From the IMG/VR virus record IMGVR_UViG_3300028805_000054: a stretch of 64,000 nt of DNA. One strand, 5' to 3'. Each line of letters begins with the position of its first letter. Position 1 is the stretch's first letter. The position numbers and the translations under genes were made by a program. The notes below the pieces were generated by a model. It saw only the letters and a program-made list of their open reading frames with translations, made no database searches and was not told the DNA's origin. Shown one piece after another: positions 772 through 62,527 of this stretch. This DNA comes from an uncultured virus (IMG/VR IMGVR_UViG_3300028805_000054) (lineage: Duplodnaviria; Heunggongvirae; Uroviricota; Caudoviricetes).

Positions 772-3610
772 AATATTGGCAATAGCGGACATACATCTAC
801 ATGATTATCCGCAGCGTAATAGTTTTCAATTTCAACGATTATATCAAGGATCAAGAATTGTAGCTAAAAATATTATTGAAGTAGGGAAGAGGGAAGGAGC
901 GAATTACATAGCGATTTGTGGTGATCTGATAGAGAAATCGATAATCAGACCGTACGTTATGGCAGAAGCATACAATTTCCTTCATACCATCATGTCAGAG
1001 TTCAAAGAAGGTTGGATTATCTGGGGAAATCATGATATAGATGCTAAGTCGTCAGATCAAGTAATGACAGATTCTTGCTTAGCTTTATTCCTTCCTCCCA
1101 ATCTTAAGTATATGCATCAACAGCAGATAGAACTGGAGGGAAAGATTTTGGGTTTTAACAATTGGCAGCCCGACATAGATCTGAGTTGGGTAAAAGGTGA
1201 GTTAGATATGTTATTTACTCACGCTAGGATATGTTATCAGGAAGGTTCAGACTTATATCAATCACAGTACTTAGATGAATCAAAGTTTAAGATTGCATTC
1301 TGTGGTGATATACATAGACCAGGACAACTAGGAAAATATGTCAGCATTGGTATCCCTCAAAGATGTAAGATGTCGGATGGAGAAAAATCGACCGGCGTAT
1401 TGATAGATCTTGAAACGGGAGATTGGAAATGGGTAGACCTGAATCCTAAAGATAATCTAATGAAATTCCAGTATGTGACAGTTCCGGAGCAAGAAGGATG
1501 GAATGAAGCTTTTAAGACCTGGAATATCTATAAGCCAAGTACCGATAACATGATAGATCCCTCTGCAAACATAAAAGTATCGGGGTGGGAGAAAATTGAG
1601 TCTTTGGTAGATGATGCTATAAAAAAGGCGTCTCTAGTAGAAGTTCATCAGCAAGTTTTAGCCTCCATCCCAAACTTAGATGCAGGGGAAGTAGATTTCA
1701 ATTTCACCCCAGTCCGTTTCTATTGTAAGAATTGGAGAAGTATAGACGAAGTTGAAATGTTTTTTGAAGAGGGAGATAAAATCCTGATTGTTGGTGAAAA
1801 TGGATCTGGTAAGTCTAGTCTCCTATCTGCCATTAAATATGCGTTCTGTGATGTTCGTTCTACTTCTGGTCTTTCCTCACTAAAGCCATTCATTCAATTT
1901 GGTACTAAGGATTGTGTAACAGAAGTAGAGTTTATGTATCAGGGAAATCGTTGTAAGCTGAGACGTGGAACAAAAGAATATGGTCTCTGGATAAACGAGG
2001 AGCCTATGAAATATAATAGTAAGGCAGATTTTGAAGCTGATGCACGCCGTAGATTCCCATTCATTGAGTATATGGAGGTAATGATTCACGACCAAGACCA
2101 TAACCAATTTATAGGAAGTCTTACCGGCGAGAGATTAGCAGAAATAATCAGTAAAGCTTTTAAACTAGACCGCATTGATACCTATAATGATGCTGCTTCT
2201 CTTATGCTCACTCAATTGGTAAAAGGAGCTGCAGAGTGGGAATCAAAGATAGGGGAGTCAAAGAAGGTATTAGGATTTATAAACAGCAAACTAGAATCAA
2301 TTGTCTTACCTACCAAAACAAAAGAAGAGTTGACGAAGGAAAAGGATGTTATGGTTGAGCTGCAGAGGAAAAATCGAGAGTGGAATATCTTTGTGTCTAC
2401 TTCTTCACGTCTTCAAGCTGGTATAGAAAGTAGGGAAGGTGAGAAGACTGAATTGCTGGAGAAGAAACGAGCGCAAAGAGAACCGTCGATAATAGATGCG
2501 GAGATAGAGAACCTAAGAAAAGAGATTGGAGTAAAGCAGGAACGTCTTATTGAATTGGGCGGACTTAAGAATGCAATCAGGGTAAAGGAATCAGAATTAA
2601 CCCGCATAATCTCCGACGGTAAAAATCTGCGCTCGGAATTTACAGCAATAGATCCCACCAAGATTTCCTATTGTCCTACTTGTCGCCAGCAGATTATCCC
2701 CTCTCCAGAAACTATCGAAGCCTTAAAAACAAAGAAGGAAGAGATTGGAAAGAAGCTGGAGGAAAAGTTGGCTGAATATGGAAAGGTTAATCAGGAGTTA
2801 GAGCAGATGAAGAACGATTTTGGAAACTCAGACTCCGAAATTCAGGCTATCAACGGAGAGATAGGGGGATTGAATGGAGAGATTACAAAGAGGATGTCAG
2901 AAATACGAGTCGGGAAGGAAATTGAGGAGAGACTAGGGAGAGTAGAACGTGAGCTGACCGAATGGAAAACTAAATTAGCGAATCTTGGTGCTCCCGAAAA
3001 AGTTGAACTTCCTGATGATTTTATGGAGAAGATGTCAACAATAGAGTCTGGCTTATCATCATGGAACCTTTGGGAATCTGGGGTGAAAGACAAAGAGGAA
3101 CAAGAGAAGAAAGTTAAGGCCTATGAGAAAGAAGTGGAAGGTAATCGAGAACAACAGGATAAACTCAAGTCTTATATAAAACTGACAGGACCAACGGGAG
3201 TTATTTATGAGGAGGTAATGAAAAAACTAGTCTCCCAATTCAATGACAATACCGTATCCTATGAAGTTAATGTCAGAGAGTTTAGAAAGAAAGATCACCT
3301 CACTCTCGTACCACAATTCTTTAATAATGGAAATTGGGTATCTTATGAGGCTTGTAGTGGTGGTCAGAAAACGGTACTCGACATTCACTTCTTGAGCAAA
3401 ATTATAAATCGTGTTGGAATATTAATCTTGGATGAATTTTTGAAACACCTTGATCCTTCTAACCACGATCTCTGTCTCGATATGATTCAGAGTATGAGTA
3501 TTGGTTGTACCTTTGTCTCATCTCATATGGAATCTATCGCAGCATTCAATAATAAAACGTGTAGCTTGTCTCTTAATCAGTCAGGCCTCACGCAGATGAA
3601 ATTTAGTTAA
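764..3610 (+). CDS. Fused Mre11/SbcD nuclease - Rad50/SbcC ABC-ATPase
   Basis: N-terminal metallophosphoesterase motifs (ADIH, CGD, GNHD, THA, GDIH); Walker A GENGSGKS; coiled coil with zinc hook CPTC; signature CSGGQ; Walker B LILDE; H-loop SSH. Confidence 0.92.
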   Translation: MSKILAIADIHLHDYPQRNSFQFQRLYQGSRIVAKNIIEVGKREGANYIAICGDLIEKSIIRPYVMAEAYNFLHTIMSEFKEGWIIWGNHDIDAKSSDQVMTDSCLALFLPPNLKYMHQQQIELEGKILGFNNWQPDIDLSWVKGELDMLFTHARICYQEGSDLYQSQYLDESKFKIAFCGDIHRPGQLGKYVSIGIPQRCKMSDGEKSTGVLIDLETGDWKWVDLNPKDNLMKFQYVTVPEQEGWNEAFKTWNIYKPSTDNMIDPSANIKVSGWEKIESLVDDAIKKASLVEVHQQVLASIPNLDAGEVDFNFTPVRFYCKNWRSIDEVEMFFEEGDKILIVGENGSGKSSLLSAIKYAFCDVRSTSGLSSLKPFIQFGTKDCVTEVEFMYQGNRCKLRRGTKEYGLWINEEPMKYNSKADFEADARRRFPFIEYMEVMIHDQDHNQFIGSLTGERLAEIISKAFKLDRIDTYNDAASLMLTQLVKGAAEWESKIGESKKVLGFINSKLESIVLPTKTKEELTKEKDVMVELQRKNREWNIFVSTSSRLQAGIESREGEKTELLEKKRAQREPSIIDAEIENLRKEIGVKQERLIELGGLKNAIRVKESELTRIISDGKNLRSEFTAIDPTKISYCPTCRQQIIPSPETIEALKTKKEEIGKKLEEKLAEYGKVNQELEQMKNDFGNSDSEIQAINGEIGGLNGEITKRMSEIRVGKEIEERLGRVERELTEWKTKLANLGAPEKVELPDDFMEKMSTIESGLSSWNLWESGVKDKEEQEKKVKAYEKEVEGNREQQDKLKSYIKLTGPTGVIYEEVMKKLVSQFNDNTVSYEVNVREFRKKDHLTLVPQFFNNGNWVSYEACSGGQKTVLDIHFLSKIINRVGILILDEFLKHLDPSNHDLCLDMIQSMSIGCTFVSSHMESIAAFNNKTCSLSLNQSGLTQMKFS
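2452..2649. repeat. Ladder nested inverted-repeat element 1 (inside Rad50 coiled-coil CDS)
   Basis: attgctg 2452/cagcaat 2643; cgagcgca 2468/tgcgctcg 2628; accgtcg 2482/cgacggt 2614; atgcgg 2496/ccgcat 2602. Confidence 0.85.
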
Positions 3611-6322: not shown

Positions 6323-6480
6323 TTTCCTGGTGTGGTTGGGTCGCGCAAGTATAAGAAACACACAAGATTTTTCACGGCTGTAATTATAAACTTGTGTAAA
6401 AATAAATACAGGAGAAAATTAACGGCCGTATTTTTAATCCTCCTGTAATTAAATTCTTGCGCAAAAAAAACACCAGGAAA
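6323..6480. repeat. Branched ladder element 2 (intergenic)
   Basis: tttcctggtgt/acaccaggaaa; gcgcaag/cttgcgc; arm acacaag-(acggctgt)-cttgtgt; arm tacaggag-(acggccgt)-ctcctgta. Confidence 0.9.
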
Positions 6481-20177: not shown

Positions 20178-20411
20178 CTGTGGGGAAGAAACAGAGGGAA
20201 AGTGGAGGGCGTGAAAATTTAGGGTGGGATTTTCAAGGAGGAATTTTTTGCATATGCCTTTTTCACCTCCTTATTCTTCCACCCTTTTCCCTTACGCCAA
20301 AATGTGATAGAGTCGGAAGAAAAACACAAGAAATAACTGTGTGCGAAGCGATAAAGAAACTTGTGTGAAAATCTCGACTCTCCATAAATCCCTCTGTAAA
20401 AATTCCCACAG
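20178..20411. repeat. Branched ladder element 6 (between divergent promoters)
   Basis: ctgtggg/cccacag; acagaggga/tccctctgt; ggcgt/acgcc; agggtgg/ccaccct; aaggagg-(gcatatgc)-cctcctt; agagtcg/cgactct; acacaag-(gcgaagc)-cttgtgt. Confidence 0.92.
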
Positions 20412-29700: not shown

Positions 29701-29722
29701 GTATTACCATTAAAGGTTTTAC

Positions 29723-30631: not shown

Positions 30632-30645
30632 CTCGTCTATAAGGA

Positions 30646-30729
30646 GTTGGGGAGATTATGCAAGATTCTCACACAAGCTCTTCACCCTCCGTCTTGTGTC
30701 CGTTTCCTCTTGCATTAAAAATCCCCAAC
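30646..30729. repeat. Ladder element 8 (between terminator and promoter 30634-30644)
   Basis: gttgggga/tccccaac; atgcaaga/tcttgcat; acacaag/cttgtgt. Confidence 0.88.
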
Positions 30730-30752
30730 AAAAAAAAAGACGAGGAAAGTTT

Positions 30753-31178
30753 TTATTTCCCCGTTTTCTTTCTATCTCTGACCCAGACTTTTGGTTTTCC
30801 CAGTAGTATAAGAGGTTCTGTCAAGGTCCACTCTTTGATATGATTCGAGTCCACCGGTTTTCCTCCTTTCTCTGGATTTACTCCTAGTGTTATGTGTTTA
30901 TGTTTATTCCTTGTTGGAGCACTACACATAACTTTAACCGCTGCCACTCTATCATCCATTCCAAAGTGTGTAACAATCAAGAACAGAGTCTTATCTTTAT
31001 TCTGTTCATACCAATACTTTTCTGAGCCAGTAAGTTCCACATCAGGTCCTGTATTGAATACTATTGTCATATGGTGGCAAAATATTCTCCAGCCCTCATG
31101 TTCGCCAAATTTCTGTTTTAGGATGTCTTGGCTTTCTTTGTCAAGTTCCACCCCATAGTATAATATATTTTTATCCAT
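30753..31178 (-). CDS. 2H phosphoesterase (cyclic phosphodiesterase-like)
   Basis: Two HxT motifs: HMT and HIT. Confidence 0.7.
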   Translation of the reverse strand: MDKNILYYGVELDKESQDILKQKFGEHEGWRIFCHHMTIVFNTGPDVELTGSEKYWYEQNKDKTLFLIVTHFGMDDRVAAVKVMCSAPTRNKHKHITLGVNPEKGGKPVDSNHIKEWTLTEPLILLGKPKVWVRDRKKTGK

Positions 31179-31233
31179 GTTGTTGAAATTTAAACTCCCC
31201 GTCCTACTAATAAGGATTTCGGGGAGCGTGAAC

Positions 31234-31623
31234 CTACAAAATCTGATACTTACCTTTTGGTTCTCCTAGATAATGTACTTTTAATGCTACAACGTCTTTT
31301 ACTCTAGTTACAGTCATCGAGCTCATTTCCAGGAGTCTATTTAGGTCTTCACATATGTCATCAGATATTTTGTCTTTCATTCTTTTTACTTCTCTGTCGT
31401 TTTCTCCTACCTTTCTTATTTCATTCAGGTAATCAGAGAAATCGATACTTACATCTCCACCAAACAGAATTTCTCCTTCTTCAATCCATCCGGTGAATTT
31501 TCCTTCAATACTTTCCAACTGTAAGGCCACTATCTGAAAAGGTTGACCATACTTTGGATCTTCGGAGTGATAGTACTTATGTTTCATCACTTCCGTTCCT
31601 AGCCATAATTTTCTTTGTCCCAT
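31234..31623 (-). CDS. hypothetical protein (start at MGQRKL)
   Basis: Track start lies inside promoter motif 31684-31694. Confidence 0.65.
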   Translation of the reverse strand: MGQRKLWLGTEVMKHKYYHSEDPKYGQPFQIVALQLESIEGKFTGWIEEGEILFGGDVSIDFSDYLNEIRKVGENDREVKRMKDKISDDICEDLNRLLEMSSMTVTRVKDVVALKVHYLGEPKGKYQIL

Positions 31624-31715
31624 GTTTGTTTGTTTTAAAAAAATTAAAAAGAGCCCCAATAATTTCTTTAGGAGCTCTTCTCTCATTAATAAGGGTTTCA
31701 GGCTTTCTCAGACGG

Positions 31716-32156
31716 TCAACTTTTCCGATATTTCCAGAGTGAGCATTCGGGGTTACATTCCATAAAGCATTCATTCTGGCAGTGACATTCTAGATCGGAT
31801 AAGGTTTGTACTTCCTCATGTACCTCTTCTATTCGTTTCAGGTATTTAGAAGCGGTATATCTAACTCTCAACATATTCTCCCCCGTCTTAGGATCTTTAG
31901 AGAGGGTCATTATAGTACACGTGTTAGCCTCCGGAAAAGTTTGGATAGGGATATTGGCCAGCATTGATTTTTTAGCCACATTATTCTCCATATGTTTCCC
32001 GATTTCTATGGGTGGTTTGACGGCGAGTAGGATTCCATTTTCTCTATTCTTCTCGTCGTATACCAAATCTCCCATCATCAGTTTCTCATCACCTTTTCCC
32101 TTAACTCCTCTTTTTGATAATACTCTTACACCCTTTAATATATCAATTTCTTCCAT
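31716..32156 (-). CDS. hypothetical protein with C-terminal Cys cluster
   Basis: CHCQNECFMECNPEC. Confidence 0.7.
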   Translation of the reverse strand: MEEIDILKGVRVLSKRGVKGKGDEKLMMGDLVYDEKNRENGILLAVKPPIEIGKHMENNVAKKSMLANIPIQTFPEANTCTIMTLSKDPKTGENMLRVRYTASKYLKRIEEVHEEVQTLSDLECHCQNECFMECNPECSLWKYRKS

Positions 32157-32751
32157 ATATTGTTCTGGATAGTTCGGTTAGGCTTTTCTTTCCCATTCCG
32201 TTCTTCCATTCAATATTAAGGATTTGGGTTATATCTTCATCTACATCTTTCCATTCCCACCCTGACCATCTAGCTTCCGACAATTTTACAAGGATAGCGT
32301 GTTCTGGTGTTGGTGAATTAAACTGTGAAACCTGCTCGAGAACCTTCCAGAAAAAATCAGACTGGAAAAGTACGGCCGGAGATTTTAAGGCAGCTCTCCA
32401 TATTCCTTCTATTCTCCAAGCCACTCCATTCCAATCTCCCGGTTCTATTCCCCTTAATATTCCTTCGGTTGGTTTTTGTTCAGTTAAGGTCAAGAATTCA
32501 AAGTCAGTTTTAGTCGCATCATCTCTTCCTTCTCCCGTTGTTCCTGCCACAAAAGATTTCTCGGCCGTTATAAAATCCCAGTCTAAGATCCTGGAAGAAT
32601 GGGTGAGCAGGGAATAATTGGCTTTAGTATCTTTCATTTCCATCACCACCTCTATTTCCCCTTGTCCTATTTCAAGTTCTTCCAATAATAGTATGAGTGA
32701 TTCTTTATCTCTCAGTGTTACTTTTATTTTCCTAGTTGTATTGTCTTCCAT
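32143..32751 (-). CDS. hypothetical protein
   Basis: Operon ORF. Confidence 0.7.
   Translation of the reverse strand: MEDNTTRKIKVTLRDKESLILLLEELEIGQGEIEVVMEMKDTKANYSLLTHSSRILDWDFITAEKSFVAGTTGEGRDDATKTDFEFLTLTEQKPTEGILRGIEPGDWNGVAWRIEGIWRAALKSPAVLFQSDFFWKVLEQVSQFNSPTPEHAILVKLSEARWSGWEWKDVDEDITQILNIEWKNGMGKKSLTELSRTIYGRN
32331..32611. repeat. Ladder element 9 (inside CDS)
   Basis: cctgctc 32331/gagcagg 32605; cttccag 32344/ctggaag 32591; agactgg 32359/ccagtct 32578; acggccg 32372/cggccgt 32562; ggcag 32389/ctgcc 32544. Confidence 0.88.
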
Positions 32752-33944
32752 GAGTTTTTCTCCTGTTCTGCATAAATTACTTCTCCGTTTGTTTGGGGAT
32801 CTAGGTTTACCACATTTCTATATTTGTGCGTATTCCAATCTCCGTAGTATTTGCAATGAGCATGAACTGACCACCACCCTGAACCTGAAGTATGGGCAGC
32901 AAATTCTTTATCTACTTTATTCATGTCTCTATTTCCGTATATAACATTCCCTATAAACTTTGGAGATATTTGTTCGATATATTTAAGTCCGGAATGAGTG
33001 CAAACATACTTTAGTTTTCCAGTATCAATTATAACGAATAGCTTAAGAATTCTGTTCAGCCTGTCTAGATATGTTTTTGCTTGTTCCGGATTTAAGTCCA
33101 TAAATTCTTTGTAGGTTGTCTTGAAATAATCGGCGGGAATAGATTCATATAATAATTCTCTTACCTCTCTATTTCTTCCCCCTACATTCAACATGATAAG
33201 TCCGAGTTGTTTTCTGAGTCTTAGTTCGTGATTTCCTTCAAGCCAGACGATCCCACTTCTCGCTCCTCTCCGTATTACCTCATCAATCATTGCCCTACTT
33301 CCTCCTTCCTCTGGTCCATCTATATAATCACCATGAAAGATAGTCAGTCCATAATCTTTGAAGTTGGGGAGTAGTTTAAAGAGTGAGTAGTTGGAGTGGA
33401 TATCAGAGACATGTAGTATTTTCTTTCCTTGTCCCCCTATCCAATTTTCTCGTTTGGCTTTTTTCTCCCAATACAACTCTACATCTCGGTATTTCTTTAT
33501 CACGTGTTTTCCTTCCTCTGTAAAATCAAGGTGTTCTACAACCTCTCTCTTTATTTCATCTTTTCGTTTTGGGATATAGTAGGGGAGGCCATAAGCTTTT
33601 TGATTCTTCATGTAATCTTTAGGGATGGATTGGTAGACATAGAAAATAGTATAACCGAATATGAAGGCCAATGATTCAAAGACCTTAAGGCATTCATTTT
33701 CTGGATCCAACACAATCAGACATCCTTTACTCAGTTTTGTTATGAAGACCTTGAGAAATTCCGAATAGACTGTATCACCGTAAGACCTATTTAGCACCTC
33801 CTTAAATGGTACCAAGAGTTCAGGGCTAGAGTACAGTTTTTTCAGGACATCTATATCAAGGAAAAAATTCTTAAGTCCTTCCCTTTCTACCCACCTAAGT
33901 TTTTCAGTTTTAGCAACACCTTTCAATATGATTAGTGATTTCAT
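32724..33944 (-). CDS. Pnkp-like protein: degenerate P-loop kinase + calcineurin-like phosphatase
   Basis: LIILKGVAKTEK; SDIH, HGDYIDG, GNHE, THSG, HAH. Confidence 0.7.
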   Translation of the reverse strand: MKSLIILKGVAKTEKLRWVEREGLKNFFLDIDVLKKLYSSPELLVPFKEVLNRSYGDTVYSEFLKVFITKLSKGCLIVLDPENECLKVFESLAFIFGYTIFYVYQSIPKDYMKNQKAYGLPYYIPKRKDEIKREVVEHLDFTEEGKHVIKKYRDVELYWEKKAKRENWIGGQGKKILHVSDIHSNYSLFKLLPNFKDYGLTIFHGDYIDGPEEGGSRAMIDEVIRRGARSGIVWLEGNHELRLRKQLGLIMLNVGGRNREVRELLYESIPADYFKTTYKEFMDLNPEQAKTYLDRLNRILKLFVIIDTGKLKYVCTHSGLKYIEQISPKFIGNVIYGNRDMNKVDKEFAAHTSGSGWWSVHAHCKYYGDWNTHKYRNVVNLDPQTNGEVIYAEQEKNSWKTIQLGK

Positions 33945-33946
33945 AA

Positions 33947-34516
33947 TTATCCTGGGAGTTGCATTTGCTGAAGATCTTGAAATTTTTGGATATAAGAACC
34001 AGCGCAAAGTATGACATCCTTAACCGAAGTTTTACCGGTAAGAAGAGGAACACCATACTTCTCACAATAAAGATGAATCTGAGAATACATCTGATTACCT
34101 TCCCCGCATCTAACCACCAATTTTCCTGACGTGACTAGAGACCCGAATTCTAAGATTGGGGTGGGAGATACAGATTTATTCATAATGTTTAAGAATACAA
34201 AATCAGCCATATCCATCATCGCCATTCTCCACTGCATGGTCGCAACAAATTCGGGGTTTTCCAACGTCGGGGCTAATCTATTGGTGGGAGGAACATGCGG
34301 GTTGAAAATAATCCAGTTAGCTCCCTTAATCATCAGCAAACCTTTTAGAGGATCAGACAATTTTTCCAATCCCTCTACAAATTTAGTCTGCCAATCATTC
34401 TCGGAGGAACCAAAATCCATAGTACCACCGAGATAAACTTTAATAGCGTCATTTGTAACCACCGGCAGCTGATCGCCAGGGTACAAGACGGTAATTTTCT
34501 CACTTACTTGCAACAT
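33947..34516 (-). CDS. Nucleoside 2-deoxyribosyltransferase-like protein
   Basis: VYLGGTMD...DWQ...IFNP...SPTPILEFG...KLVVRC. Confidence 0.75.
   Translation of the reverse strand: MLQVSEKITVLYPGDQLPVVTNDAIKVYLGGTMDFGSSENDWQTKFVEGLEKLSDPLKGLLMIKGANWIIFNPHVPPTNRLAPTLENPEFVATMQWRMAMMDMADFVFLNIMNKSVSPTPILEFGSLVTSGKLVVRCGEGNQMYSQIHLYCEKYGVPLLTGKTSVKDVILCAGSYIQKFQDLQQMQLPG
34103..34301. repeat. Ladder element 10 (inside CDS)
   Basis: cccgcat/atgcggg; ccaccaa/ttggtgg; gacgt/acgtc; cccgaatt/aattcggg. Confidence 0.8.
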
Positions 34517-35799
34517 AATACTTCCTCAAGGATACCCACTGCTTTAGCTGTGGGAGGAATTGAGGTTGATTCCTTCTTTTTGTTATACATAATTAATCTA
34601 CTAGATATCCTACAAAGTCTGAGATTCTTGTAAGAGGTACCTAATTTATTTCCATCAAATGTGCGAATATCAAAATAACCACAGCTTCTTCTACCACCTA
34701 TATAGTATTGTCCTCCTTTATATCTAACAATATCATTTAGCCTATAACCACAAACTTTATATGAAGCTTGATTCTTTTTAAGTTTACCTCCTTTTAAAAT
34801 TTTAAACTTATGAATTTGACGATTATGTCTCCTAACCTGTTTCATAATATATCTATAATCTAACAGCTTAGCTCCAAAATTCTCACTAATTACAAAAGCA
34901 TCATTGTCATGATCCTTAGAGATACTATTCTGAATACGATTATATTTTGTAATATATCCCCAAGTATAGAAAACATTACTATATCTTATTCCAGATTCCC
35001 TAAGAAGATAATTCTTCATAATATTCATTACTGCTGCATCACGAAGAGATCTGGATCTCTTAAAAGACAACTTAATCTTACCTTCATGATAATCCTTGTG
35101 ACAAGTTTTACACAAAGTAATCAGGTTTCCTGGAGAGTTACCCCCTATCTTTCTTGATACAATATGATGTACATTTAAGATCTTATCACCAGACCTACCT
35201 TTACAATGTTGACAGGTGTGATTATCCCGGGACAAAATATACTCTCTAATATTCCAGAAATCTTTTTGCGGCCCCTCCTGATATTGTACTCCACTAATAC
35301 TAGGGTTATTTATCTTCTGAGGATCAAAAGAACCAACTTCAATAATAAGTTTTGTGATTGGAAGAATAGAGTAGACTAGATCTATCAGTTTAAAGTGAAA
35401 TTGTATCTTATTCTGTATAGAGGGTGCTATCCAACCAGGTTTCTTAGTTTTTATTCTATTCAGAAATCTAGCCTCTCTGTGACGAAGTCTTCCTCTTCTA
35501 GTTCTTCTAACTTCTCTCCTAGTTGAAAGGAGATTTACTATATCTGTTCTTAATTCACCTATCCCACAAAATAATTCTTCTTTTGAAGTAGTAGCAGATA
35601 GGCCAACATGTTTTGACCCACTGTCTACGCCAAGAGTAATATTTTGTGTATATCTTTTCTTTTCTGTGGTCAACTGGATTGTGAATGGTTCTTTTCTTAC
35701 CACCACTGCTTGACCTGTTTTAAGTAGCCACCTGACATGTCCTAATCTTTTAGTAGGCATTAAAGGCGTGCCATCATAGTTCAATACATATACAATCAT
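34504..35799 (-). CDS. iscB: RNA-guided endonuclease IscB
   Basis: PLMP domain; RuvC-I LGVDSG; Arg-rich RRTRR bridge helix; RuvC-II IIEV; HNH CQHC..HHIV..N..TLCKTCH; RuvC-III HDNDA. Confidence 0.95.
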   Translation of the reverse strand: MIVYVLNYDGTPLMPTKRLGHVRWLLKTGQAVVVRKEPFTIQLTTEKKRYTQNITLGVDSGSKHVGLSATTSKEELFCGIGELRTDIVNLLSTRREVRRTRRGRLRHREARFLNRIKTKKPGWIAPSIQNKIQFHFKLIDLVYSILPITKLIIEVGSFDPQKINNPSISGVQYQEGPQKDFWNIREYILSRDNHTCQHCKGRSGDKILNVHHIVSRKIGGNSPGNLITLCKTCHKDYHEGKIKLSFKRSRSLRDAAVMNIMKNYLLRESGIRYSNVFYTWGYITKYNRIQNSISKDHDNDAFVISENFGAKLLDYRYIMKQVRRHNRQIHKFKILKGGKLKKNQASYKVCGYRLNDIVRYKGGQYYIGGRRSCGYFDIRTFDGNKLGTSYKNLRLCRISSRLIMYNKKKESTSIPPTAKAVGILEEVLCCK

Positions 35800-36140
35800 A
35801 ATAATTAAATTTAATTAATAACTTCATTCCCCTAAGGGAAGTTAGGCTCCCATCGTCAATGTTATTATGTGGTTTAATTGTTATCAACACTTTCCCTACC
35901 CCATAGGAATGTTTAATCAATAACCGTAGAGCTACAGACTTGGAAGAATTTACATCCGTAGGTACCTATTGTATAGAAGGTTGAATACAAAACAACTCCT
36001 CTACATTCACACATAACGTAGTTCATCTCTTTCTATCATCTCGTGATACATAGAGACTTCACTTAGACTAATCAGCATAGGGCATTTACATTCCCTCGAC
36101 CAGATATTTTTATAATATCGTTCAGTCGTGGGTTACTGAC
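34504..36140 (-). mobile_element. Non-autonomous IS200/IS605-family IscB (OMEGA) element
   Basis: Begins GTCAGTAACCCACGACTGAA on the minus strand; ends with subterminal hairpin CCCACAGCTAAAGCAGTGGG; no tnpA. Confidence 0.85.
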
Positions 36141-36160
36141 TTACTTGTAACATTATATTA
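35810..36160 (-). ncRNA. omega-RNA (HEARO-like) scaffold with 5' guide of about 16-20 nt (36141-~36160)
   Basis: Non-coding region upstream of iscB with typical motifs (GTCAGTAACCC, GATTAGTCTAAG, CTACGTTA, GCTCTACGG, ACATTGACGATGGG). Confidence 0.8.
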
Positions 36161-36164
36161 AAAC

Positions 36165-36175
36165 CAAATTTAAGG
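36165..36175 (-). promoter_or_regulatory. Promoter-like motif CCTTAAATTTG driving guide/omega-RNA
   Basis: Motif variant that also contains the Bacteroidota -7 consensus TAnnTTTG. Confidence 0.6.
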
Positions 36176-36209
36176 AGAAAGGAAACTATCCTCTCTCCGA
36201 TTTCACATT

Positions 36210-36791
36210 CTAGCACCAATCTTCCAAAACCAATTTTCCTTCGTAGATATCCCTGAGAGACTTTAGATCTCCCTTGAATAACATGATAGAGGCTTCAGAA
36301 TATTCGTGCGTTCCATATTCTACCATAGCCTGATGAAAAATATACTTCCTTTCCCCTGACATAGCTTTATACTCTGAGAAATCTTTTATAATACAAAGTT
36401 TTCTCTTATTCTTCACTGCTTCCTGTATATCCTTCTGTAGTTCTTCTTTCGGATAACCATGGAGAGGTATAAATTCGGTAGTCTTCAGTTCTTTCTTTAG
36501 GGCACATTCCAAGAAAGAGTTAATGATACCCTGAAAAACATTCATACTATTTTCATTTATCCCAATCGCCATCTTATTTTCCGAAGCCTTAATGATTGAT
36601 CCTCCATTATCTATTGGGAATGTGATTATGGCAGTTCTATCATTAAACCATTCAACTTCAGTATCTTTAGGAACACTAGGATTATCAGTGACCATGCCAG
36701 AGAAATTATTGAAATATCTCATCATCAAGTAAGTTTCAACACTTAAGGTAATTCTTCTCTTCTCTGGGTTATATCCAGGCTGTACATTCAT
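36210..36791 (-). CDS. hypothetical protein
   Basis: Follows promoter motif 36817-36827. Confidence 0.75.
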   Translation of the reverse strand: MNVQPGYNPEKRRITLSVETYLMMRYFNNFSGMVTDNPSVPKDTEVEWFNDRTAIITFPIDNGGSIIKASENKMAIGINENSMNVFQGIINSFLECALKKELKTTEFIPLHGYPKEELQKDIQEAVKNKRKLCIIKDFSEYKAMSGERKYIFHQAMVEYGTHEYSEASIMLFKGDLKSLRDIYEGKLVLEDWC

Positions 36792-36828
36792 AAGCTAAAC
36801 GATTTTTATTATTTAACATGTATAAGGA

Positions 36829-37425
36829 TTACAGGGGTCGGTTTACGTGATTTCTTATGTTTACCAAGAAATCGAAGACTCCCGGACTTTCTAAGGGTTT
36901 CATTTTTCTCATCTCCGCACATAAGGCTCTAAATTCTTTCTTCTGTACGCTTCCTTTTTCCAGGTGTGATATTCGGTAAGTCTTGATTCCTATTCCCTCC
37001 AAGTATAAATCTCTCAGTCCGTCTTTCTTACCGTTGTGATATTCCGAATCTAGTTCTACGGCAAGTCTTAGGGTGGGGAAATAATAGTCTAGGAGAAAGA
37101 AACCACCCTCTACTCCAGCCGTTCTTTTCAGATTCGAGATTACAACGGGGAATTCACGGACTACAACTAATGGATCCCAAAAGCCGATATTAATCAAGAA
37201 ATCAAAGAACTTAGCTTGGAGAGATCGTTTCTTTAGTTGCTTCATCCGGGTAAAACGTTTGATTGAAGTTGGGGATGGGTAGACTGTATTTTTGAAATTA
37301 TAGACTCTTCCCTTCTCAGACACCGAATAAACAGGATAAGGCTGCCATGGAATATCTGGGAAGGTGAAAGTCTCTAAGTAATTTTTCTCCTTCATATCTT
37401 CATTATAAAAAGAGAGGAGTGACAA
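36829..37425 (-). CDS. DUF559/Vsr-like PD-(D/E)xK endonuclease (start may be 37395)
   Basis: LLDYYFP..LAVELDSEYH...D..RD..L...GIKTYRI. Confidence 0.75.
   Translation of the reverse strand: MSLLSFYNEDMKEKNYLETFTFPDIPWQPYPVYSVSEKGRVYNFKNTVYPSPTSIKRFTRMKQLKKRSLQAKFFDFLINIGFWDPLVVVREFPVVISNLKRTAGVEGGFFLLDYYFPTLRLAVELDSEYHNGKKDGLRDLYLEGIGIKTYRISHLEKGSVQKKEFRALCAEMRKMKPLESPGVFDFLVNIRNHVNRPL
37016..37162. repeat. Ladder element 11 (inside CDS)
   Basis: agtccgt/acggact; ccgttgt/acaacgg; cgaatct/agattcg; acggc/gccgt; agggtgg/ccaccct. Confidence 0.88.
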
Positions 37426-37470
37426 CCTTTTCTTTAGATCATCACTTCCTCCTTTATTTAGTCTTTACTC

Positions 37471-39153
37471 TTAATTTACAGCCTTAACTTCGAATACACC
37501 AGGCTCAACCTCCACTGACTCATAACCTTCCTGAACGAACGATACTTCTCCACCAGGCTCTGACATAGAATGAGCAGGATCGAAACCATAGAATTTACCA
37601 CCAAATACCTTGATGTTAGCAGTTCCGGCAGTATAAGCATCGTCCTTACAGTTCAACAGATATTTCTTATCCTCAGTGCTAACCTTGAATTCACCACCAT
37701 AGATTTCAATGATACCCTTCTCAGCATATACAGCATGAGTTTGAGCAATGAAAATACCACCATAAATTTTCAGGTCACCAGTTGCATAAGCCTTCCAAAT
37801 ACCATAACCTTTCGGATTCTCCCAAATACCATTACCCTCAAAGTAAACATTAACAGCAGAACGAGTCAGACAAATAGCATTCTTGTTTTCACCTACCATA
37901 TAAGCATTGTTGTTGAATTTGTAATTACCAGAAGCAAAGGCACCAAAAACGATACAGTTGGTCGAAGTACAATCCTCAGTGATCTCATAAATACCAGGAT
38001 CACTAGTCAAGTCAGTACCTTCAGCGGGAACATATTTGGTATATGGCTTGATAGTACAGCCCTCAGCCAATTCTATCTCATCATAGTTCTGCTCAGGGAA
38101 ACAGTTATAAACAACCACATTACCTGAATTAACCTTTAGCTTATTAACATGACACTTAGCACCAATGTATAAGGTATGAGTAGAAACAGTTGCCTCTACC
38201 TCACCCCACTGACCATTCAAAGTAACAGTAGCACGAGGAGCAGTAATATTCAGACTCTCAAGAACAGTAGTATCCGAAGCATTCTGGATAGAGAGCTTGT
38301 TTGTGCTGTAGCTGATTACTTCTACAGGATCGTTCCAGTCAGCATTTACACTTAAGTTGCCCTTTCCTTCCAGTTCAGTGTCAAACGTTACAGACTGAAT
38401 CTTAGCACCTGAAGCACTTACTGTCTTAGAATTAGCCCATACATTGTTGAAATTACCCTTCAAAGTAATCGATGCATTCTCAGAGTTAATCACAATGTCA
38501 ACAGGATCACCAGTATTGTTAATGGTAATACTCTTTGCACCATCATTAGTAATTGTAGCACCATCCTGGAAAGCACTATTGATAGTTACAGCCTTTGGAG
38601 TCTCGGCAGGAATAGTTAGGTTGTTCGCAATACCATCCAAAGTAATAGAATAAGTTCCACCCTGTATCTGCTGCTCAACATTATCCTCAATTACTTGCTG
38701 CTCTGGGGTATTTTCATTCTCGGCAGGCTTCTCAGGACCAATTTTACCGTCGAGAGTAACAAAAACACTAATCACATCACTAATCTCAGAAGCGGGTTTA
38801 GAGACTGTGATATCTGTATTTCCTTCAGCGGTAGCATAAACAATACCATCCTGATTTATCCAAGCAACTTCAGGTTTAGAGCTCTCCCAACAGAGTTCCG
38901 GGAGATTAGCAAGTTCTGGATTCTGTTCTACATTCAATTTTACCGATCCACCAACCTGAAGAACAGGAGCAGGAGTGGTGATCTTAATACTTTCAAGCTT
39001 AGCGGGGTCATAAATCTCAGAATCTTTTTTCCAAGGTATAACATCATAAGCTTTTCTAGAAGCCATACCATTGTGAGATTTCTTTAGTACATCTTCCGGA
39101 GTCACACCAGTTTCGTACAAGTTAACCTCAGGCTCATTAATCATTTCATCCAT
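37471..39153 (-). CDS. Ig-like (Big_2) domain protein with beta-rich C-terminus, probable virion/structural protein
   Basis: LQVGGSVKL...WESSKPEVA.I...G.V.A..EG...ITV; repeated IxIYGGxF strands. Confidence 0.7.
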   Translation of the reverse strand: MDEMINEPEVNLYETGVTPEDVLKKSHNGMASRKAYDVIPWKKDSEIYDPAKLESIKITTPAPVLQVGGSVKLNVEQNPELANLPELCWESSKPEVAWINQDGIVYATAEGNTDITVSKPASEISDVISVFVTLDGKIGPEKPAENENTPEQQVIEDNVEQQIQGGTYSITLDGIANNLTIPAETPKAVTINSAFQDGATITNDGAKSITINNTGDPVDIVINSENASITLKGNFNNVWANSKTVSASGAKIQSVTFDTELEGKGNLSVNADWNDPVEVISYSTNKLSIQNASDTTVLESLNITAPRATVTLNGQWGEVEATVSTHTLYIGAKCHVNKLKVNSGNVVVYNCFPEQNYDEIELAEGCTIKPYTKYVPAEGTDLTSDPGIYEITEDCTSTNCIVFGAFASGNYKFNNNAYMVGENKNAICLTRSAVNVYFEGNGIWENPKGYGIWKAYATGDLKIYGGIFIAQTHAVYAEKGIIEIYGGEFKVSTEDKKYLLNCKDDAYTAGTANIKVFGGKFYGFDPAHSMSEPGGEVSFVQEGYESVEVEPGVFEVKAVN

Positions 39154-39242
39154 ATTTTTATCGCGATTTTATGGGTTACAAAAAAGAGAGAACCAGACTT
39201 ATATCTAGTTTCTCTCTATCAATTCTTATTCTTCTCTCGTTA

Positions 39243-39842
39243 TTAAGGATTTGAGGTCTCTTCCGACGTGAAATCCGGCTTTGGAGTAGGTTTCCAATTA
39301 GTTAAGAAATCTGGCCCCTCTATCTTAGAAATCAATTCCGCTGAGTATGCAAGTTGTACTAAACAATCCTTACACATACAGACACTTGATTCGCTCGATA
39401 TGAAAGCAAGTGATTCATCTTCCGGGTCCATATTTTTGTCATGTGATCCAACATAGAATACAGGTTTGCCACATATAGGACACTTATCTTCTCCTTCTCC
39501 TGCCACCGAACTTATTGTCTCTGGTTTCTCAATAAAAGCATGCATCAGGTGTCTCATAAATCTACCATATTGAAGACTCCTATAAGCTTCCACCAAGATA
39601 CAGGCTTCCTCAGGATTTACGGATATCAAACCCTTAATGTCTATTCCATGAGATTTCCGATAGTTCATTATAATACTAGGCAATTCATAGTCCCCAATTT
39701 TTCTCGGGTAACAATAGGAATAGACTAGTAGCTTATCAATATCTCCAATCTTCTGAGAACCCATTATCAACTCTTTCCCTTTCTCCTCATCTATCCCACT
39801 CTTCAGGAGATAGTCGGTAAAAACACTTAATTCTTCAACCAT
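39243..39842 (-). CDS. hypothetical Zn-binding protein
   Basis: CPIC...CKDC. Confidence 0.7.
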   Translation of the reverse strand: MVEELSVFTDYLLKSGIDEEKGKELIMGSQKIGDIDKLLVYSYCYPRKIGDYELPSIIMNYRKSHGIDIKGLISVNPEEACILVEAYRSLQYGRFMRHLMHAFIEKPETISSVAGEGEDKCPICGKPVFYVGSHDKNMDPEDESLAFISSESSVCMCKDCLVQLAYSAELISKIEGPDFLTNWKPTPKPDFTSEETSNP

Positions 39843-41695: not shown

Positions 41696-41989
41696 ATGAA
41701 TAAAAATCAAAAAGTAACGTTATTTAGGGCGATCTTAAAGTCAGTATTCATCTTTATTACCGTCTCCTTTATTTTCTGGGGCGGTTGGAATTTAGTGTTT
41801 GTTGAGGAGCTTGAAATAGGGAATAAAGTTGAGGTTGAGAGATTTTGGGTGTTTGGTTTTCCTACTCTCCTGTTCTTCTACTTTCTCCGTCTCTTATCTC
41901 CTGCTTGGTTTGTTCTGCTTAAGGTATCCGATTTTATCATTTACACTATGATCATCCTCGCGTGGTTAGCTTTGATTTGGTGGTTGTAA
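41696..41989 (+). CDS. membrane protein
   Basis: Three hydrophobic segments. Confidence 0.65.
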   Translation: MNKNQKVTLFRAILKSVFIFITVSFIFWGGWNLVFVEELEIGNKVEVERFWVFGFPTLLFFYFLRLLSPAWFVLLKVSDFIIYTMIILAWLALIWWL

Positions 41990-42062
41990 AGAGAAATCTG
42001 GACACACGACTTTAATTCTTCCTTCGGGTTGGGTTTAGGTCGTGTTTTTATTATCACGCGAG
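41957..42062. repeat. Small ladder element 12 abutting promoter 42065-42075
   Basis: ctcgcgtg/cacgcgag enclosing acacgac/gtcgtgt (inner hairpin may double as a terminator). Confidence 0.6.
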
Positions 42063-42101
42063 ATCCTTAATAGTGTGGAAATCAAAATCGGGAAATAAAA
42101 A

Positions 42102-46872: not shown

Positions 46873-47341
46873 ATCTTTCACACGCACTGGAACATTCTTA
46901 AAGGTAGGATACACAGAGAACATAGAAAGAAGAATGGGAGAATATCTGGTGGAAAATCCGGGACGAGAGTTGATATCTATACGCGCGGGAGATTTAACGG
47001 AGGAAACTAGAATGCACCTTTATCTTACGGCGTGTGGATTTAAAGCGGATTTTTTAGAGGAGTGGTTCCAAGATTGTCCTGAAGTTCTCCTTGGTTTTCA
47101 TCAGGCTCAGGAGAAAATGAATAAAATGATATGGAGGAAGCGTGAATTAATTTTTACTTCCTTCGATTTTTCACGCCGTTCTCTCAAGGTGCAAATATAT
47201 GAAGAACTCCGTTTCCTTCATCGCGCGGAAAACTTGAATGCCTTAATGATAGATAAAGAATGGAGAAAATGGAACCTAAAGAAAGACCTAAAAACGTGGC
47301 AGAATATTTTGAACGATGGAGAGGTGATGTTTTTGAAGTGA
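46856..47341 (+). CDS. GIY-YIG/T5orf172-like protein
   Basis: MLYLI...LKVGYTENIERRM..Y...NP...E..MH...EWF. Confidence 0.75.
   Translation: MLYLIRSFTRTGTFLKVGYTENIERRMGEYLVENPGRELISIRAGDLTEETRMHLYLTACGFKADFLEEWFQDCPEVLLGFHQAQEKMNKMIWRKRELIFTSFDFSRRSLKVQIYEELRFLHRAENLNALMIDKEWRKWNLKKDLKTWQNILNDGEVMFLK
46982..47227. repeat. Ladder element 13 (inside CDS)
   Basis: cgcgcg/cgcgcg; aacggag/ctccgtt; tgcacctt/aaggtgca; acggcgtg/cacgccgt. Confidence 0.88.
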
Positions 47342-56087: not shown

Positions 56088-56734
56088 ACCTAGGACAGAA
56101 GATTGACCTGGATAATAACGACAGGAATAGGAAGATTTGGTTTATGTCTGATCTTCACTACAACCACAGGAATATACTTTGGATTAACCAGTCGACAAGA
56201 GGAGATAGGTTTAAGGATTTGGAAGAGATGAACCAATATATCCTGAGTGAGTTAAGGGCGAAAGTTAAGGAGGGGGATATTCTATTTGACCTTGGAGACC
56301 TGATATGGAAAGAAGGACCACCCGAGATTAAATTATTCAGCGAGGTTCTTCCCGTTAGATCTCACCGTGTATTAGGCAACCACGATGGAAGAAATCTAGA
56401 AGCATGGGGAAAATGTTGGTGTAGTATTTCTGATCTCCTTGACTTGATTGTGAAATACCAGGGAGAGGATATTCGGATTACTCTTTCCCATTACCCCTTA
56501 CTAGACTGGAATCATAGATATCGTGGGTCTTGGAATATACACGGTCATTGTCACGGGAATCTCGACTTGCTGAATAATGAGAGCGGAGAGTTAAGGATGG
56601 ATATAGGTTTTGATTCTGAGATTGCTTCGCGTGTTGGTTCTTTCCTGATACCTTTCGAGAGTATATTGGTTGAGATGAAGAAGCGAACAGGTGGGAAAGG
56701 ATTTAGAGACTGGGCAAAAGAAAGGTTTAATTGA
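56084..56734 (+). CDS. Calcineurin-like metallophosphoesterase
   Basis: SDLHYNH, LGD, GNHD, SHYP, HGHCH. Confidence 0.9.
   Translation: MNLGQKIDLDNNDRNRKIWFMSDLHYNHRNILWINQSTRGDRFKDLEEMNQYILSELRAKVKEGDILFDLGDLIWKEGPPEIKLFSEVLPVRSHRVLGNHDGRNLEAWGKCWCSISDLLDLIVKYQGEDIRITLSHYPLLDWNHRYRGSWNIHGHCHGNLDLLNNESGELRMDIGFDSEIASRVGSFLIPFESILVEMKKRTGGKGFRDWAKERFN
56332..56578. repeat. Ladder element 14 (inside CDS)
   Basis: attattcagc/gctgaataat; ttcccgt/acgggaa; accgtgtat/atacacggt; ccacgat/atcgtgg; tctag/ctaga. Confidence 0.9.
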
Positions 56735-58177: not shown

Positions 58178-58622
58178 TTTTGATAATACGATAGTTATAG
58201 ATGAGTGGCCAGAAATAGGAGCCCTCATTCCCGGAGCCATAGAAACATTGAAAGAATTACAGGCGAGGGGTCATCGGATAATTCTTTACACACAGCGGAC
58301 GGATGACTATTATTGTTATTGTCCGGAGTTGATAGAGTATGGGAAGAAACACGGGAAGAGTTTTAAAGATACGGTGAATTTATTGGAACCCGCTGTGAAA
58401 CTCTTATCCGATAATGGAATCTCGCCTGATGCTATCAATTCAAATCCTTGGTGGGAAGCGGAGTGTCAGGATTATGGAAGGAAAGTTTATTTTGATGTCC
58501 TGATAGATGACCATAACGCAGGGATAACCAGGAAGACCGTTAAGAACAGTAAAGGAGAGTGGTGTGAAGTTGTAGATTGGGATGCTCTCCGGGAATGGTT
58601 AAAGAAAGAGGGAATATTATGA
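58161..58622 (+). CDS. HAD-superfamily hydrolase
   Basis: IGVDFDNTIV, ILYT.R, RKV..D.LIDD. Confidence 0.85.
   Translation: MTIGVDFDNTIVIDEWPEIGALIPGAIETLKELQARGHRIILYTQRTDDYYCYCPELIEYGKKHGKSFKDTVNLLEPAVKLLSDNGISPDAINSNPWWEAECQDYGRKVYFDVLIDDHNAGITRKTVKNSKGEWCEVVDWDALREWLKKEGIL
58260..58428. repeat. Ladder element 15 (inside CDS)
   Basis: caggcgag/ctcgcctg; atcggataa/ttatccgat; cacagcgg/ccgctgtg. Confidence 0.85.
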
Positions 58623-61811: not shown

Positions 61812-62527
61812 CTCTTTATAACCACTTCGAAAAGATGTCCATAAATACTATAAACTCGTAACCTAACCCCGGCCGGAAATCCACACTTCTTTATATACCG
61901 CTTGAATTTCCTCCGCGTGATTGGTCCCTTTATCGTTTCCGTATTAGTATTCCATTCCCGACACTCTAACCAATGATGCCACTTTCCCGTTTCTTCACTA
62001 TACATCCAGTCAGTATCCTCAACCTGAACATTCAACCTTAAGTTTCTTTGTCTAATACGCGGAAAAGAACCAAGCGGAAGAATCTTGAAGTGTGAGGAAG
62101 CGGCCGGTCTAACATAACTATCAAATTCTGAGTTTCTCGCTTTAATTTCTTCATAATCACTATATTGTTGTTTGAGTCTCCTCTGTATGAAATCGATTGG
62201 ACAATACCTGATCAACCATACATCAAAGTAAGTAGGCGTATTCCATAAGACCAGCTCACCTTTTCCGTTCGGGTCTGGTTCCCAATCTTCTCCGAGTGCA
62301 TCTTTGGCTTCTTGTACATGCTTAGGATCTTTATAATAATTCCGATATCTCTCCTTCTGTGCTTCAATTCTCTCCTTAAATTCGGCTTCTTCATATTCTG
62401 CCACCCAATCAATCGGAGCAAAGACATTACCAAAATCATCCGTTACCGTCCCTACACTTTTGGCCCAATCATACGCTGCCTTGTAATCTTCCCAACAAGT
62501 TACATAAGTCTTATCTATTCCTGCCAT
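61808..62527 (-). CDS. hypothetical phage protein
   Basis: MAGIDKTY...LWNTP..FD.WLIR.CP. Confidence 0.75.
   Translation of the reverse strand: MAGIDKTYVTCWEDYKAAYDWAKSVGTVTDDFGNVFAPIDWVAEYEEAEFKERIEAQKERYRNYYKDPKHVQEAKDALGEDWEPDPNGKGELVLWNTPTYFDVWLIRYCPIDFIQRRLKQQYSDYEEIKARNSEFDSYVRPAASSHFKILPLGSFPRIRQRNLRLNVQVEDTDWMYSEETGKWHHWLECREWNTNTETIKGPITRRKFKRYIKKCGFPAGVRLRVYSIYGHLFEVVIKR
61869..62107. repeat. Ladder element 16 (inside CDS)
   Basis: ccggccg/cggccgg; cacacttc/gaagtgtg; ccgcttg/caagcgg; tccgcgt/acgcgga. Confidence 0.88.

Follow-up and report, generated by a model that had tools for sequence, protein, structure and literature searches.

The subject of this study is a set of nested inverted repeats, here called ladders, in a stretch of 64,000 nucleotides (nt) of DNA (hereafter the window) from an uncultured virus of the Caudoviricetes (IMG/VR record IMGVR_UViG_3300028805_000054). 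A rung is a perfect inverted repeat, 5-8 base pairs (bp) long in the three ladders treated first, and a ladder is a nested set of rungs, detected with a finder for nested perfect inverted repeats; rung coordinates are given on the plus strand. An earlier note, made from the letters of the window, had described five, four and five nested stems (its elements 9, 10 and 11) inside three unrelated minus-strand genes between positions 32331 and 37162. The finder recovers nested stems in all three genes, and the span is exact, 32331 being the first base of the outermost rung of ladder 9 and 37162 the last base of that of ladder 11. Five stems were confirmed for elements 9 and 11, but element 10 has five rungs rather than four, two of them only 5 bp long. 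All genes of the span lie on the minus strand; those carrying ladders encode proteins of known length in amino acids (aa) or of recognizable family, as follows.

32143..32751, minus strand: hypothetical 202-aa gene, carrying ladder 9; its frame is open in 10 relatives despite in-frame length changes
32331..32611, minus strand: ladder 9, in the hypothetical 202-aa gene; rungs of 7, 7, 7, 7 and 5 bp, 150-nt centre; score 44
32331-37/32605-11, 32344-50/32591-97, 32359-65/32578-84: outer rungs of ladder 9
32372-78/32562-68, 32389-93/32544-48: inner rungs of ladder 9
33947..34516, minus strand: nucleoside 2-deoxyribosyltransferase-like (NDT-like) gene (PF15891, E 2.7e-14), carrying ladder 10
34093..34313, minus strand: ladder 10, spanning the conserved domain of the NDT-like gene; rungs of 5, 7, 8, 5 and 8 bp
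34093-97/34309-13, 34103-09/34295-301, 34114-21/34280-87: outer rungs of ladder 10
34128-32/34264-68, 34142-49/34248-55: inner rungs of ladder 10
36829..37425, minus strand: 198-aa gene, carrying ladder 11; orthologs in all relatives, including the ladder-free G001 and G003
37016..37162, minus strand: ladder 11, in the 198-aa gene; rungs of 7, 7, 7, 5 and 7 bp, 26-nt centre; score 41
37016-22/37156-62, 37031-37/37142-48, 37045-51/37130-36: outer rungs of ladder 11
37058-62/37118-22, 37070-76/37103-09: inner rungs of ladder 11

Of the gene labels in the earlier note, deoxyribosyltransferase-like stands (PF15891, 53.8 bits against a cut-off of 30), but "DUF559 nuclease" for the 198-aa gene has sub-threshold matches only behind it (DUF559, 17.9 versus 20.6 bits; PvuRts1I, E 0.28); the 198-aa protein has no NCBIfam match. 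For the 202-aa protein, Pfam, PHROGs and NCBIfam gave no family, and its best protein-atlas matches (0.91) are unnamed clusters.

The ladders are non-random. When the window was compared with eight block-wise dinucleotide shuffles of itself, stems of at least 6 bp at 11-18 nt spacing formed eight loci with at least three stems (shuffle mean 0.8, range 0-2) and three loci with at least four (none in the shuffles). Ladders of 4-5-bp stems showed no excess over shuffled sequence (for example, 120 versus 116.6 and 33 versus 32.0); such ladders of very short stems are chance, because they are equally common in shuffles. With a GC-weighted score, 11 window loci reached at least 28, against 0.05 per shuffle, and eight reached at least 36; the top score among 20 shuffles was 29.

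Furthermore, the ladders are not explained by the proteins or the codon usage of their host genes. Synonymous-codon shuffles that kept both for each gene (300 shuffles per gene) gave mean scores of 13.2-13.8, with a standard deviation (sd) of about 3 and a maximum of 26, against observed scores of 44, 38 and 41 for ladders 9, 10 and 11, and the observed score was reached by 0 of 300 shuffles in each of the three genes. The value of 38 for ladder 10 was obtained with a looser arm asymmetry, and under the strict setting it is only 23. Control genes (the kinase-phosphatase, IscB, the hypothetical 193-aa protein and the Ig-domain protein) scored 13-17, values equalled by 108-222 of 300 shuffles. 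The ladders are recovered in minimum-free-energy (MFE) folds, both as DNA and as RNA of either strand; for ladder 11 the MFE is -51.8 and -53.7 kcal/mol as RNA on the two strands (z -3.8 and -4.5) and -25.5 kcal/mol as DNA (z -3.8).

Dual coding, conservation and turnover of the ladders

Ladders inside genes are dual-coded, as the earlier note had proposed for gene-dense stretches, and their rungs are under selection, in agreement with synonymous-site, CG-codon, ortholog-pairing and non-insertion results. The reduced synonymous change expected at stems was found among ladder-bearing relatives: synonymous third positions vary at 12 of 51 sites in rungs, 19 of 39 in inter-rung loops and 142 of 258 outside (rung versus outside, Fisher 5e-5; rung versus loop, p 0.015), and amino-acid-variable codons make up 12 of 84 in rungs versus 130 of 401 outside. 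The expected excess of CG-containing codons at stems was found as well (41/171 in rungs versus 85/2143 in the remainder of the eight genes; odds ratio 7.6), together with more G or C at third positions (105/171 versus 782/2143). This codon excess arises because rungs are G+C-rich and does not reflect a special CpG preference: CG occurs in 31 of 62 rungs against 27.3 expected, with no enrichment beyond rung composition.

Comparison with outgroups shows how the rungs changed. In the NDT-like gene, 12 of 55 rung sites are derived, all 12 by synonymous changes and 10 of them AT>GC; in the 198-aa gene, 15 of 42 are derived, 14 AT>GC and eight synonymous. The window is more G+C-rich than its relatives, which accounts for part of this AT>GC trend. 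The ladders are not insertions, and ladder-free orthologs align through them: the NDT-like gene aligns with G001/G002 with 0 gaps, and orthologs of the SbcCD-like, phosphoesterase and 198-aa genes align as one segment through the ladder.

At about 36% G+C the window is A/T-rich, and it appears to be a piece of a very large phage genome. Its gene content includes an Mre11-Rad50/SbcCD-like fusion, NAPRTase, NUDIX, formyltransferase and an Ig-domain structural protein, no tRNA genes were found in it, and its closest relatives are viral contigs of 184, 210 and 353 kb. Of the sampled words of the region, 0.89 are present in runs labelled sheep gut metagenome, and a metagenome scan yielded 28 loci of relatives (given L-numbers here). 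There was no DNA relative among GenBank phage records, the best being a weak 15% protein match. IMG/VR scans gave no matches when the queries were the 198-aa and 202-aa proteins; a scan with the NDT-like protein gave two relatives, both ladder-free, and one with the kinase-phosphatase alignment gave one complete 353-kb genome, which is also ladder-free.

Ladder 9 is kept in six close relatives (L026, L027, L028, L030, L035 and L038), and in this close clade 84.2% of 221 cells are paired, versus 29.9-46.2% when the structure is slid. Its arms are conserved and its centre is hypervariable; contigs of DNA run X4 omit 76 nt of that centre (32480-32557), matching in-frame length variation among relatives. 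Deeper comparison gives firmer evidence. In L029 and L031, whose version of the 202-aa protein shares about 31% identity, the corresponding part of the gene holds a five- or four-rung ladder with wholly different letters. The W-x-I-E-x-x-W motif of the 202-aa protein is conserved and lies directly ahead of the 3' arm of ladder 9, and in a protein-anchored alignment the window clade and L029/L031 share the codon positions of the two innermost rungs of the 3' arm. In L029/L031 these two rungs have letters other than those of the window, each with a matching 5' partner, and compensated pairs separate L029 from L031.

Pairing of ladder 10 is complete in L026, largely intact in L027 and missing from G001/G002 and others. 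For ladder 11, L028 has every rung paired, with one compensated exchange, L026 keeps the ladder and L027 has lost it; rung 1 reads C:G in the window, sense-strand U.G in L026 and U:A in L028. Thus, of the persistence of pairing in orthologs on which the earlier note had staked its proposal, close orthologs keep pairing whereas distant orthologs of ladders 10 and 11 lack it. Judged by these alignments, ladders 10 and 11 are evidently young, gained and lost between relatives.

Ladder-like loci also occur in the more distant L036, L039 and L042/L043. Among three related giant-phage genomes, there were no ladders in 184 kb and only plain terminator hairpins in 210 kb, and the complete 353-kb relative has one ladder-like locus against about one expected. 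Since ladders are kept in close relatives and absent from these three genomes, the trait is clade-specific and individual ladders turn over.

Ladders elsewhere in the window and their geometry

The finder returned further ladders and ladder-like elements throughout the window.

2452..2649, plus strand: ladder of four rungs in the Mre11-Rad50/SbcCD-like fusion gene; score 38; ortholog alignment continuous through the ladder
6323..6480, minus strand: branched ladder-like element of two outer rungs (11 and 7-9 bp) and two inner hairpins; score 28, z -5.2
20178..20411, no strand assigned: branched non-coding ladder flanked by two outward-facing promoter-like motifs; score 28, z -6.0 and -5.5
24588-24731: non-coding ladder flanked by outward-facing promoter-like motifs
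30632..30744, minus strand: non-coding ladder of four rungs with a 15-nt centre; score 39
41928..42091, plus strand: ladder of three rungs at the end of a small open reading frame (ORF) and in the next spacer, enclosing a terminator-like hairpin; score 30
46982..47227, plus strand: ladder of four rungs in a 161-aa T5orf172-like gene; score 42
56332..56578, plus strand: ladder of four rungs of 7-10 bp in a phosphoesterase gene; score 45
58228..58457, plus strand: ladder of five rungs in a phosphoheptose-isomerase-like gene; score 44
61869..62107, minus strand: ladder of four rungs in a hypothetical 239-aa gene; score 43

The earlier note had inferred selection for an element every few kb, whatever the genes there. 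Density bears this out, with 12 ladders per 64 kb or about one per 5 kb, and so does indifference to genes, as eight of the 12 lie inside genes and the hosts are eight unrelated genes and non-coding DNA. Spacing is not regular, however: gaps between ladders run from 1.7 to 13.9 kb (mean 5.4 kb, coefficient of variation 0.75), an evenness equalled or exceeded by 22% of random placements. The ladder at 30632-30744 stretches from the T-run of a terminator-like hairpin to the formyltransferase ATG and is absent in L038, at a synteny break. The small ORF beside the ladder at 41928-42091, read by eye, has 97 codons (41697-41989, plus strand) and a hydrophobic, membrane-like product, and its 3' end forms the left arm of the ladder.

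What the ladders have in common is geometry. The 12 ladders comprise 46 rungs and 36 internal loops; lengths of 7 bp (22 of the 46 rungs) and 8 bp (11 of 46) predominate, perfect pairing extends over 11 bp at most, and rungs are 59% G+C in a 36% G+C genome. Internal loops are mismatched, about 68% A+T and about 7 nt per side (means 7.6 and 7.2). The mean distance between rung starts is 14.9 nt in 5' arms and 14.5 nt in 3' arms (sd 2.1-2.4, 36 loops), a regularity partly imposed by the search, since the finder admitted only 9-20 nt spacing. Arms are near-symmetric around centres of 15-175 nt. All 46 rungs differ in sequence. Non-coding ladders show the same rung-and-loop pattern as coding ones, and as loops are unpaired there too, loops are not merely the places where the protein forbids pairing. 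Codon phase showed no preference in rungs (11/14/11 of 36; wobble-with-wobble pairing in 11/36). The 4-mer ACGG/CCGT occurs in 11 of 62 rungs versus 2.8 expected, a comparison uncorrected for multiple testing.

Several short sequences recur in the window. The hairpin stem CACAAG...CTTGTG is present in four copies versus 0.07 expected (6361-6396, 12295-12328, 20325-20365 and 30672-30698), each the innermost hairpin of a non-coding ladder-like element. Four non-coding hairpins (6423, 12309, 13417 and 15684) have loops of about 21 nt centred on the palindrome ACGGCCGT, with locus-specific stems. CGGCCG, at nine copies versus about one expected, is the most over-represented 6-nt palindrome, and four of the nine are ladder rungs; the excess was not found in G001-G003. 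The motif CCTTATATAT, with at most one mismatch, has 27 sites in the window versus 9.3 expected, for example at 20138-20147 (minus strand), 20430-20439 (plus) and 36818-36827 (minus). At the sites read, it stands about 20-45 nt ahead of a start codon in the same orientation (20, 26 and 45 nt at three), and this placement suggests that it is likely a phage promoter. A link between ladders and this motif is not general, since only four ladder-like elements lie within 40 nt upstream of it (6/27 sites) and the majority of sites lack one.

Candidate roles and comparison with known elements

Our tentative reading, which we put at roughly 42%, is that the ladders fold and act in the transcript as RNA clamps; both the action as RNA and the effect on the transcript are what we infer. 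Each ladder is a single-strand fold-back in which three to five Watson-Crick rungs clamp a centre of 15-175 nt shut. Purifying selection on pairing maintains the ladders, and in genes they are encoded by the choice of synonymous codons that end in G or C or contain CG, with some amino-acid changes tolerated. In the transcript they would serve as long-range clamps within long polycistronic mRNAs, as cis-acting elements for stability, processing or protein docking whose number outweighs their exact place. The interrupted design would favor a strong RNA fold but a weak DNA hairpin, without a long perfect palindrome.

Folding in RNA is consistent with the placement of both arms of every ladder in coding sequence within one gene, with an RNA fold of ladder 11 about twice as stable as its DNA fold, with the absence of any perfect run beyond 11 bp, with a mild excess of G.U (sense strand) over A.C appositions at stem ends (20/86 versus 12/86) and with one wobble intermediate, the U.G of L026 at rung 1 of ladder 11. 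Several results weigh on the other side. In the seven-genome alignment, non-Watson-Crick cells are G.U (sense) in 16 cases versus A.C in 23; the sense-minus-antisense folding energy of ladders averages -8.7, no different from that of background coding segments at -9.1 (sd 8.9, n=150, p 0.50); and ladder folding energies are only moderately unusual (z -0.8 to -4.5). Covariation in ladder 9 of the close clade amounts to 1 of 33 pairs and is matched by shuffles, so that this alignment gives no covariation support, 14 pairs being invariant and one of 33 changed on both sides. The non-coding ladders at 20178-20411 and 24588-24731 lie between outward-facing promoter-like motifs and may be untranscribed, while the terminator-like hairpin in 41928-42091 and the T-run at the start of 30632-30744 imply terminated transcripts without the 3' arm. 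Folding energies of the arms alone and of full ladders on both strands did not decide between RNA and DNA.

RNA-library contigs of one sample (X3 and X16) give no cover in the bins of ladder 11 and of 41928-42091 and cover the other ladders. This missing cover is no evidence, because inverted repeats are reported as short-read blind spots in the available part of a study of hairworm mitochondrial genomes (PMC10380579).

Alternatively, and somewhat less probably, the same selected fold-back may act as single-stranded DNA, on the lagging-strand template or at resected ends, in replication or recombination; ladders might, for example, be programmed entry points for the phage's own Mre11-Rad50/SbcCD-like nuclease, which would start recombination-dependent replication. 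Such a role would suit rungs that are strictly Watson-Crick, without a pooled sense-strand preference for G.U (20 versus 12; 16 versus 23), and ladders that lie beyond terminators or in possibly untranscribed DNA and are indifferent to gene content, reading frame and gene boundaries. The ladders still fold as DNA (z -3.8 and -3.7), the phage encodes an SbcCD-like fusion, and turnover among relatives fits a role set by density and not by place. By the general behaviour of palindromes, however, hairpin extrusion would be improbable for the ladders, given centres that reach 175 nt and loops of 7x7; their DNA folding energy is also about half that of RNA. Contigs of four runs, a weak test, are free of breaks, inversions and deletions at ladders 10 and 11, the sole joint listed within a ladder being the 76-nt skip of X4 in the centre of ladder 9, and no strand switch separates the two arms of any of the 12 ladders.

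The ladders could also be a functionless by-product of template switching between nearby imperfect inverted repeats, with selection only removing protein-damaging patches. Short patches copied in reverse complement would keep the arms matched: the available part of one study describes template switching as making perfect stems and restoring pairing in one event (PMC8794818), and that of another as homogenizing inverted-repeat arms within coding DNA (PMC8604942). The hairpins of the former resemble ladders in their short perfect reverse-complement stems and apparent compensatory change, and the process would explain wobble-free pairing, apparent compensation, gene indifference, turnover and confinement to one clade that has its own replication machinery. 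It is a real rival, but it fits the ladder data poorly and we consider it improbable. Rungs 2 and 5 of the NDT-like gene changed on both arms (2+2 and 1+2 single changes), which makes one-way copying unfit because the donor arm would have stayed unchanged, and all 12 derived rung changes in that gene are synonymous single-base changes, with no multi-base patches. Template switching (PMC8794818) is a mutational route and not a function, and in the ladders both arms changed and rung letters are conserved between genomes (12/51 versus 142/258 variable) and not merely paired. The narrow range of rung length (7-8 bp in 33/46), loops that remain unpaired even in non-coding ladders and one ladder position held across deep divergence also count against it.

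A role in duplex DNA, whether as pairs of half-sites for protein binding or at the borders of invertible intragenic segments, is much less probable still. CGGCCG (9 versus about 1) and CGCGCG (4 versus 0.2) are over-represented and some copies are rungs or hairpin centres, but each rung has its own sequence, so that no single protein could read them all. None of the 14 joints listed from four runs changes strand (in contigs, which drop rare forms), and a conserved enzyme would be lost if the middle of the NDT-like domain were inverted. A chance origin, or an artefact of composition in an A/T-rich genome, draws on the frequency of 4-5-bp-stem ladders in shuffled sequence and on modest thermodynamic z-scores for ladders 9 and 10 but can be dismissed as already refuted by the shuffle controls (0/300 per gene), the synonymous-site and CG-codon statistics of rungs and the independent recovery of the same ladders from separate assemblies.

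Among known elements, the RNase III hairpins of phage T7 occur in early and late transcripts, between genes, as about two turns of near-continuous duplex with one bubble; they have unrelated sequences and internal loops, recur every few kb on polycistronic mRNA and act in cis on stability. Ladders share the unrelated sequences, the internal loops and the recurrence every few kb. As RNase III processing stems they were nevertheless rejected: eight of 12 lie inside genes, no perfect run is longer than 11 bp, and the 36 internal loops measure about 7x7 nt, with three to four large loops per ladder.

Dispersed palindromic repeats (REP/BIME, REPIN, MITE-like and Rickettsia palindromic elements) are inserted copies of one sequence family. 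Ladders are similar in being numerous, hairpin-forming and sometimes within genes, but a REP/REPIN/MITE-like origin was rejected, as the 20 largest direct-repeat families and the 25 longest inverted pairs link no two ladders, and coding ladders are not insertions and have no common sequence. The non-coding elements are a partial exception, with the CACAAG...CTTGTG stem and the ACGGCCGT loop four times each. Integron attC sites are recognized by their folded structure, with two paired boxes, an unpaired spacer and a variable centre, and act as single-stranded DNA; they have a conserved outer AAC/GTT triplet (RYYYAAC ... GTTRRRY) and bound gene cassettes beside an integrase. Ladders, in contrast, have 3-5 rungs, no conserved outer triplet and positions inside genes. 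An attC identity was rejected since, on reading, no listed outermost rung carries RYYYAAC ... GTTRRRY; there was no integrase among the 37 window ORFs scanned with Pfam, a subset of the total.

Intrinsic terminators, in which a T-run follows a G+C-rich hairpin with a small loop, were rejected too, as none of the five terminator-like sites in 29500-42500 falls in ladders 9-11 and no T-run follows the ladders; the terminator-like site 30764-30740 abuts a non-coding ladder. RNA viruses and RNA phages have structures overlapping coding sequence, such as cis-acting replication elements and dispersed packaging hairpins. Ladders resemble these in dual coding, in suppressed synonymous change where paired and in a structure that outlasts its sequence, although those viral genomes, unlike that of the ladder phage, are themselves RNA.

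A scan of the whole window at Rfam gathering thresholds found only HEARO, and a permissive one (E<=1) gave five matches in the window and none on ladders 9-11; a weak match to the ylbH leader (25.4 bits versus 50, E 0.28) at 30647-30773 overlaps the non-coding ladder there. Full-text literature searches, which leave subscription journals uncovered, returned no description of such ladders or of a genome-wide uniform set in a DNA phage. The nearest published parallel found is the inverted repeats within hairworm (Nematomorpha) mitochondrial genes, where, according to the available part of the study, long inverted repeats are embedded in coding sequences (PMC10380579). Like ladders, these repeats form hairpins, lie in protein-coding sequence and occur many times per genome in one lineage. 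Whereas theirs are long repeats of an animal organelle, as far as that part describes them, ladder arms are split into 7-8-bp rungs with loops of about 7 nt and belong to a double-stranded DNA phage.

It is conceivable, although we would lean against it, that a clade of giant gut phages maintains these sequence-free, geometry-defined ladders genome-wide and that a dedicated, clade-specific factor reads them. If so, ladders would be a new class of cis-element that punctuates the phage chromosome or its transcripts and is overwritten even on conserved enzyme cores, and synonymous sites in phages could be under strong, portable structural selection. The ladders would then point to a process specific to this clade of giant phages, which needs a fold-back of fixed geometry at many places and is indifferent to which.

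If the ladders are functional, a sizeable share of "silent" sites would not be silent, synonymous variation in rungs being less than half of that elsewhere, and the rare CG codons in rungs would be purposeful choices. Analyses of codon usage and dN/dS in phage genes would be affected, ladders could be destroyed when phage genomes are refactored or synonymously recoded, and gene calling in metagenomes would have to allow for ladders. Elements defined by geometry alone are missed by sequence-based repeat finders and RNA family libraries; a nested-stem scan scored against synonymous-codon shuffles detects them and is applicable to other genomes.

Neighbouring genes and other features of the window

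Between the ladder-bearing genes of the span lie the following.

32724-34007, minus strand: kinase/metallophosphatase gene
34504..35799, minus strand: IscB gene (guided_IscB in NCBIfam, 326.9 bits versus 175; Pfam RRXRR and HNH), with an ordinary ladder score
35841..36140, minus strand: HEARO RNA, the omega RNA of IscB (RF02033, 92.3 bits versus a gathering score of 83, model positions 1-211 of 211)
36210-36791, minus strand: hypothetical 193-aa gene

The HEARO RNA ends 42 nt before the start of the IscB ORF on the same strand. Together they form a mobile insertion of about 1.65 kb (34520-36169) between the 193-aa and NDT-like genes that is present in no relative, and contigs of DNA run X4 skip it, joining 34519/20 to 36162/70. 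In X3 RNA-library contigs, the HEARO region has the highest depth of the examined stretch. The pair is an ordinary member of a known family and is unrelated to the ladders.

The kinase/metallophosphatase at 32724-34007 matches the front of a PHROG annotated "RNA ligase", and the 141-aa protein at 30753-31178 weakly matches a tRNA-ligase cyclic phosphodiesterase domain; the two may make up an RNA-repair-like set around the ladders. In L029, the ortholog of the kinase/phosphatase is interrupted by an in-frame stop (L029 8207-8209) at codon 403 of about 425, which may reflect truncation, a sequencing error or recoding.

Elsewhere in the window, a diverged module of about 2.7 kb is present in two copies (25950-28623 and 53194-55924). 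Its leader comprises about 490 nt of non-coding sequence with blocks 88-97% identical, and the ORF behind it (716/734 aa) is 73-80% identical between the copies and has no relative in Pfam, PHROGs or PDB. This arrangement of a well-matched leader and a diverged ORF could represent a new RNA-protein pair.

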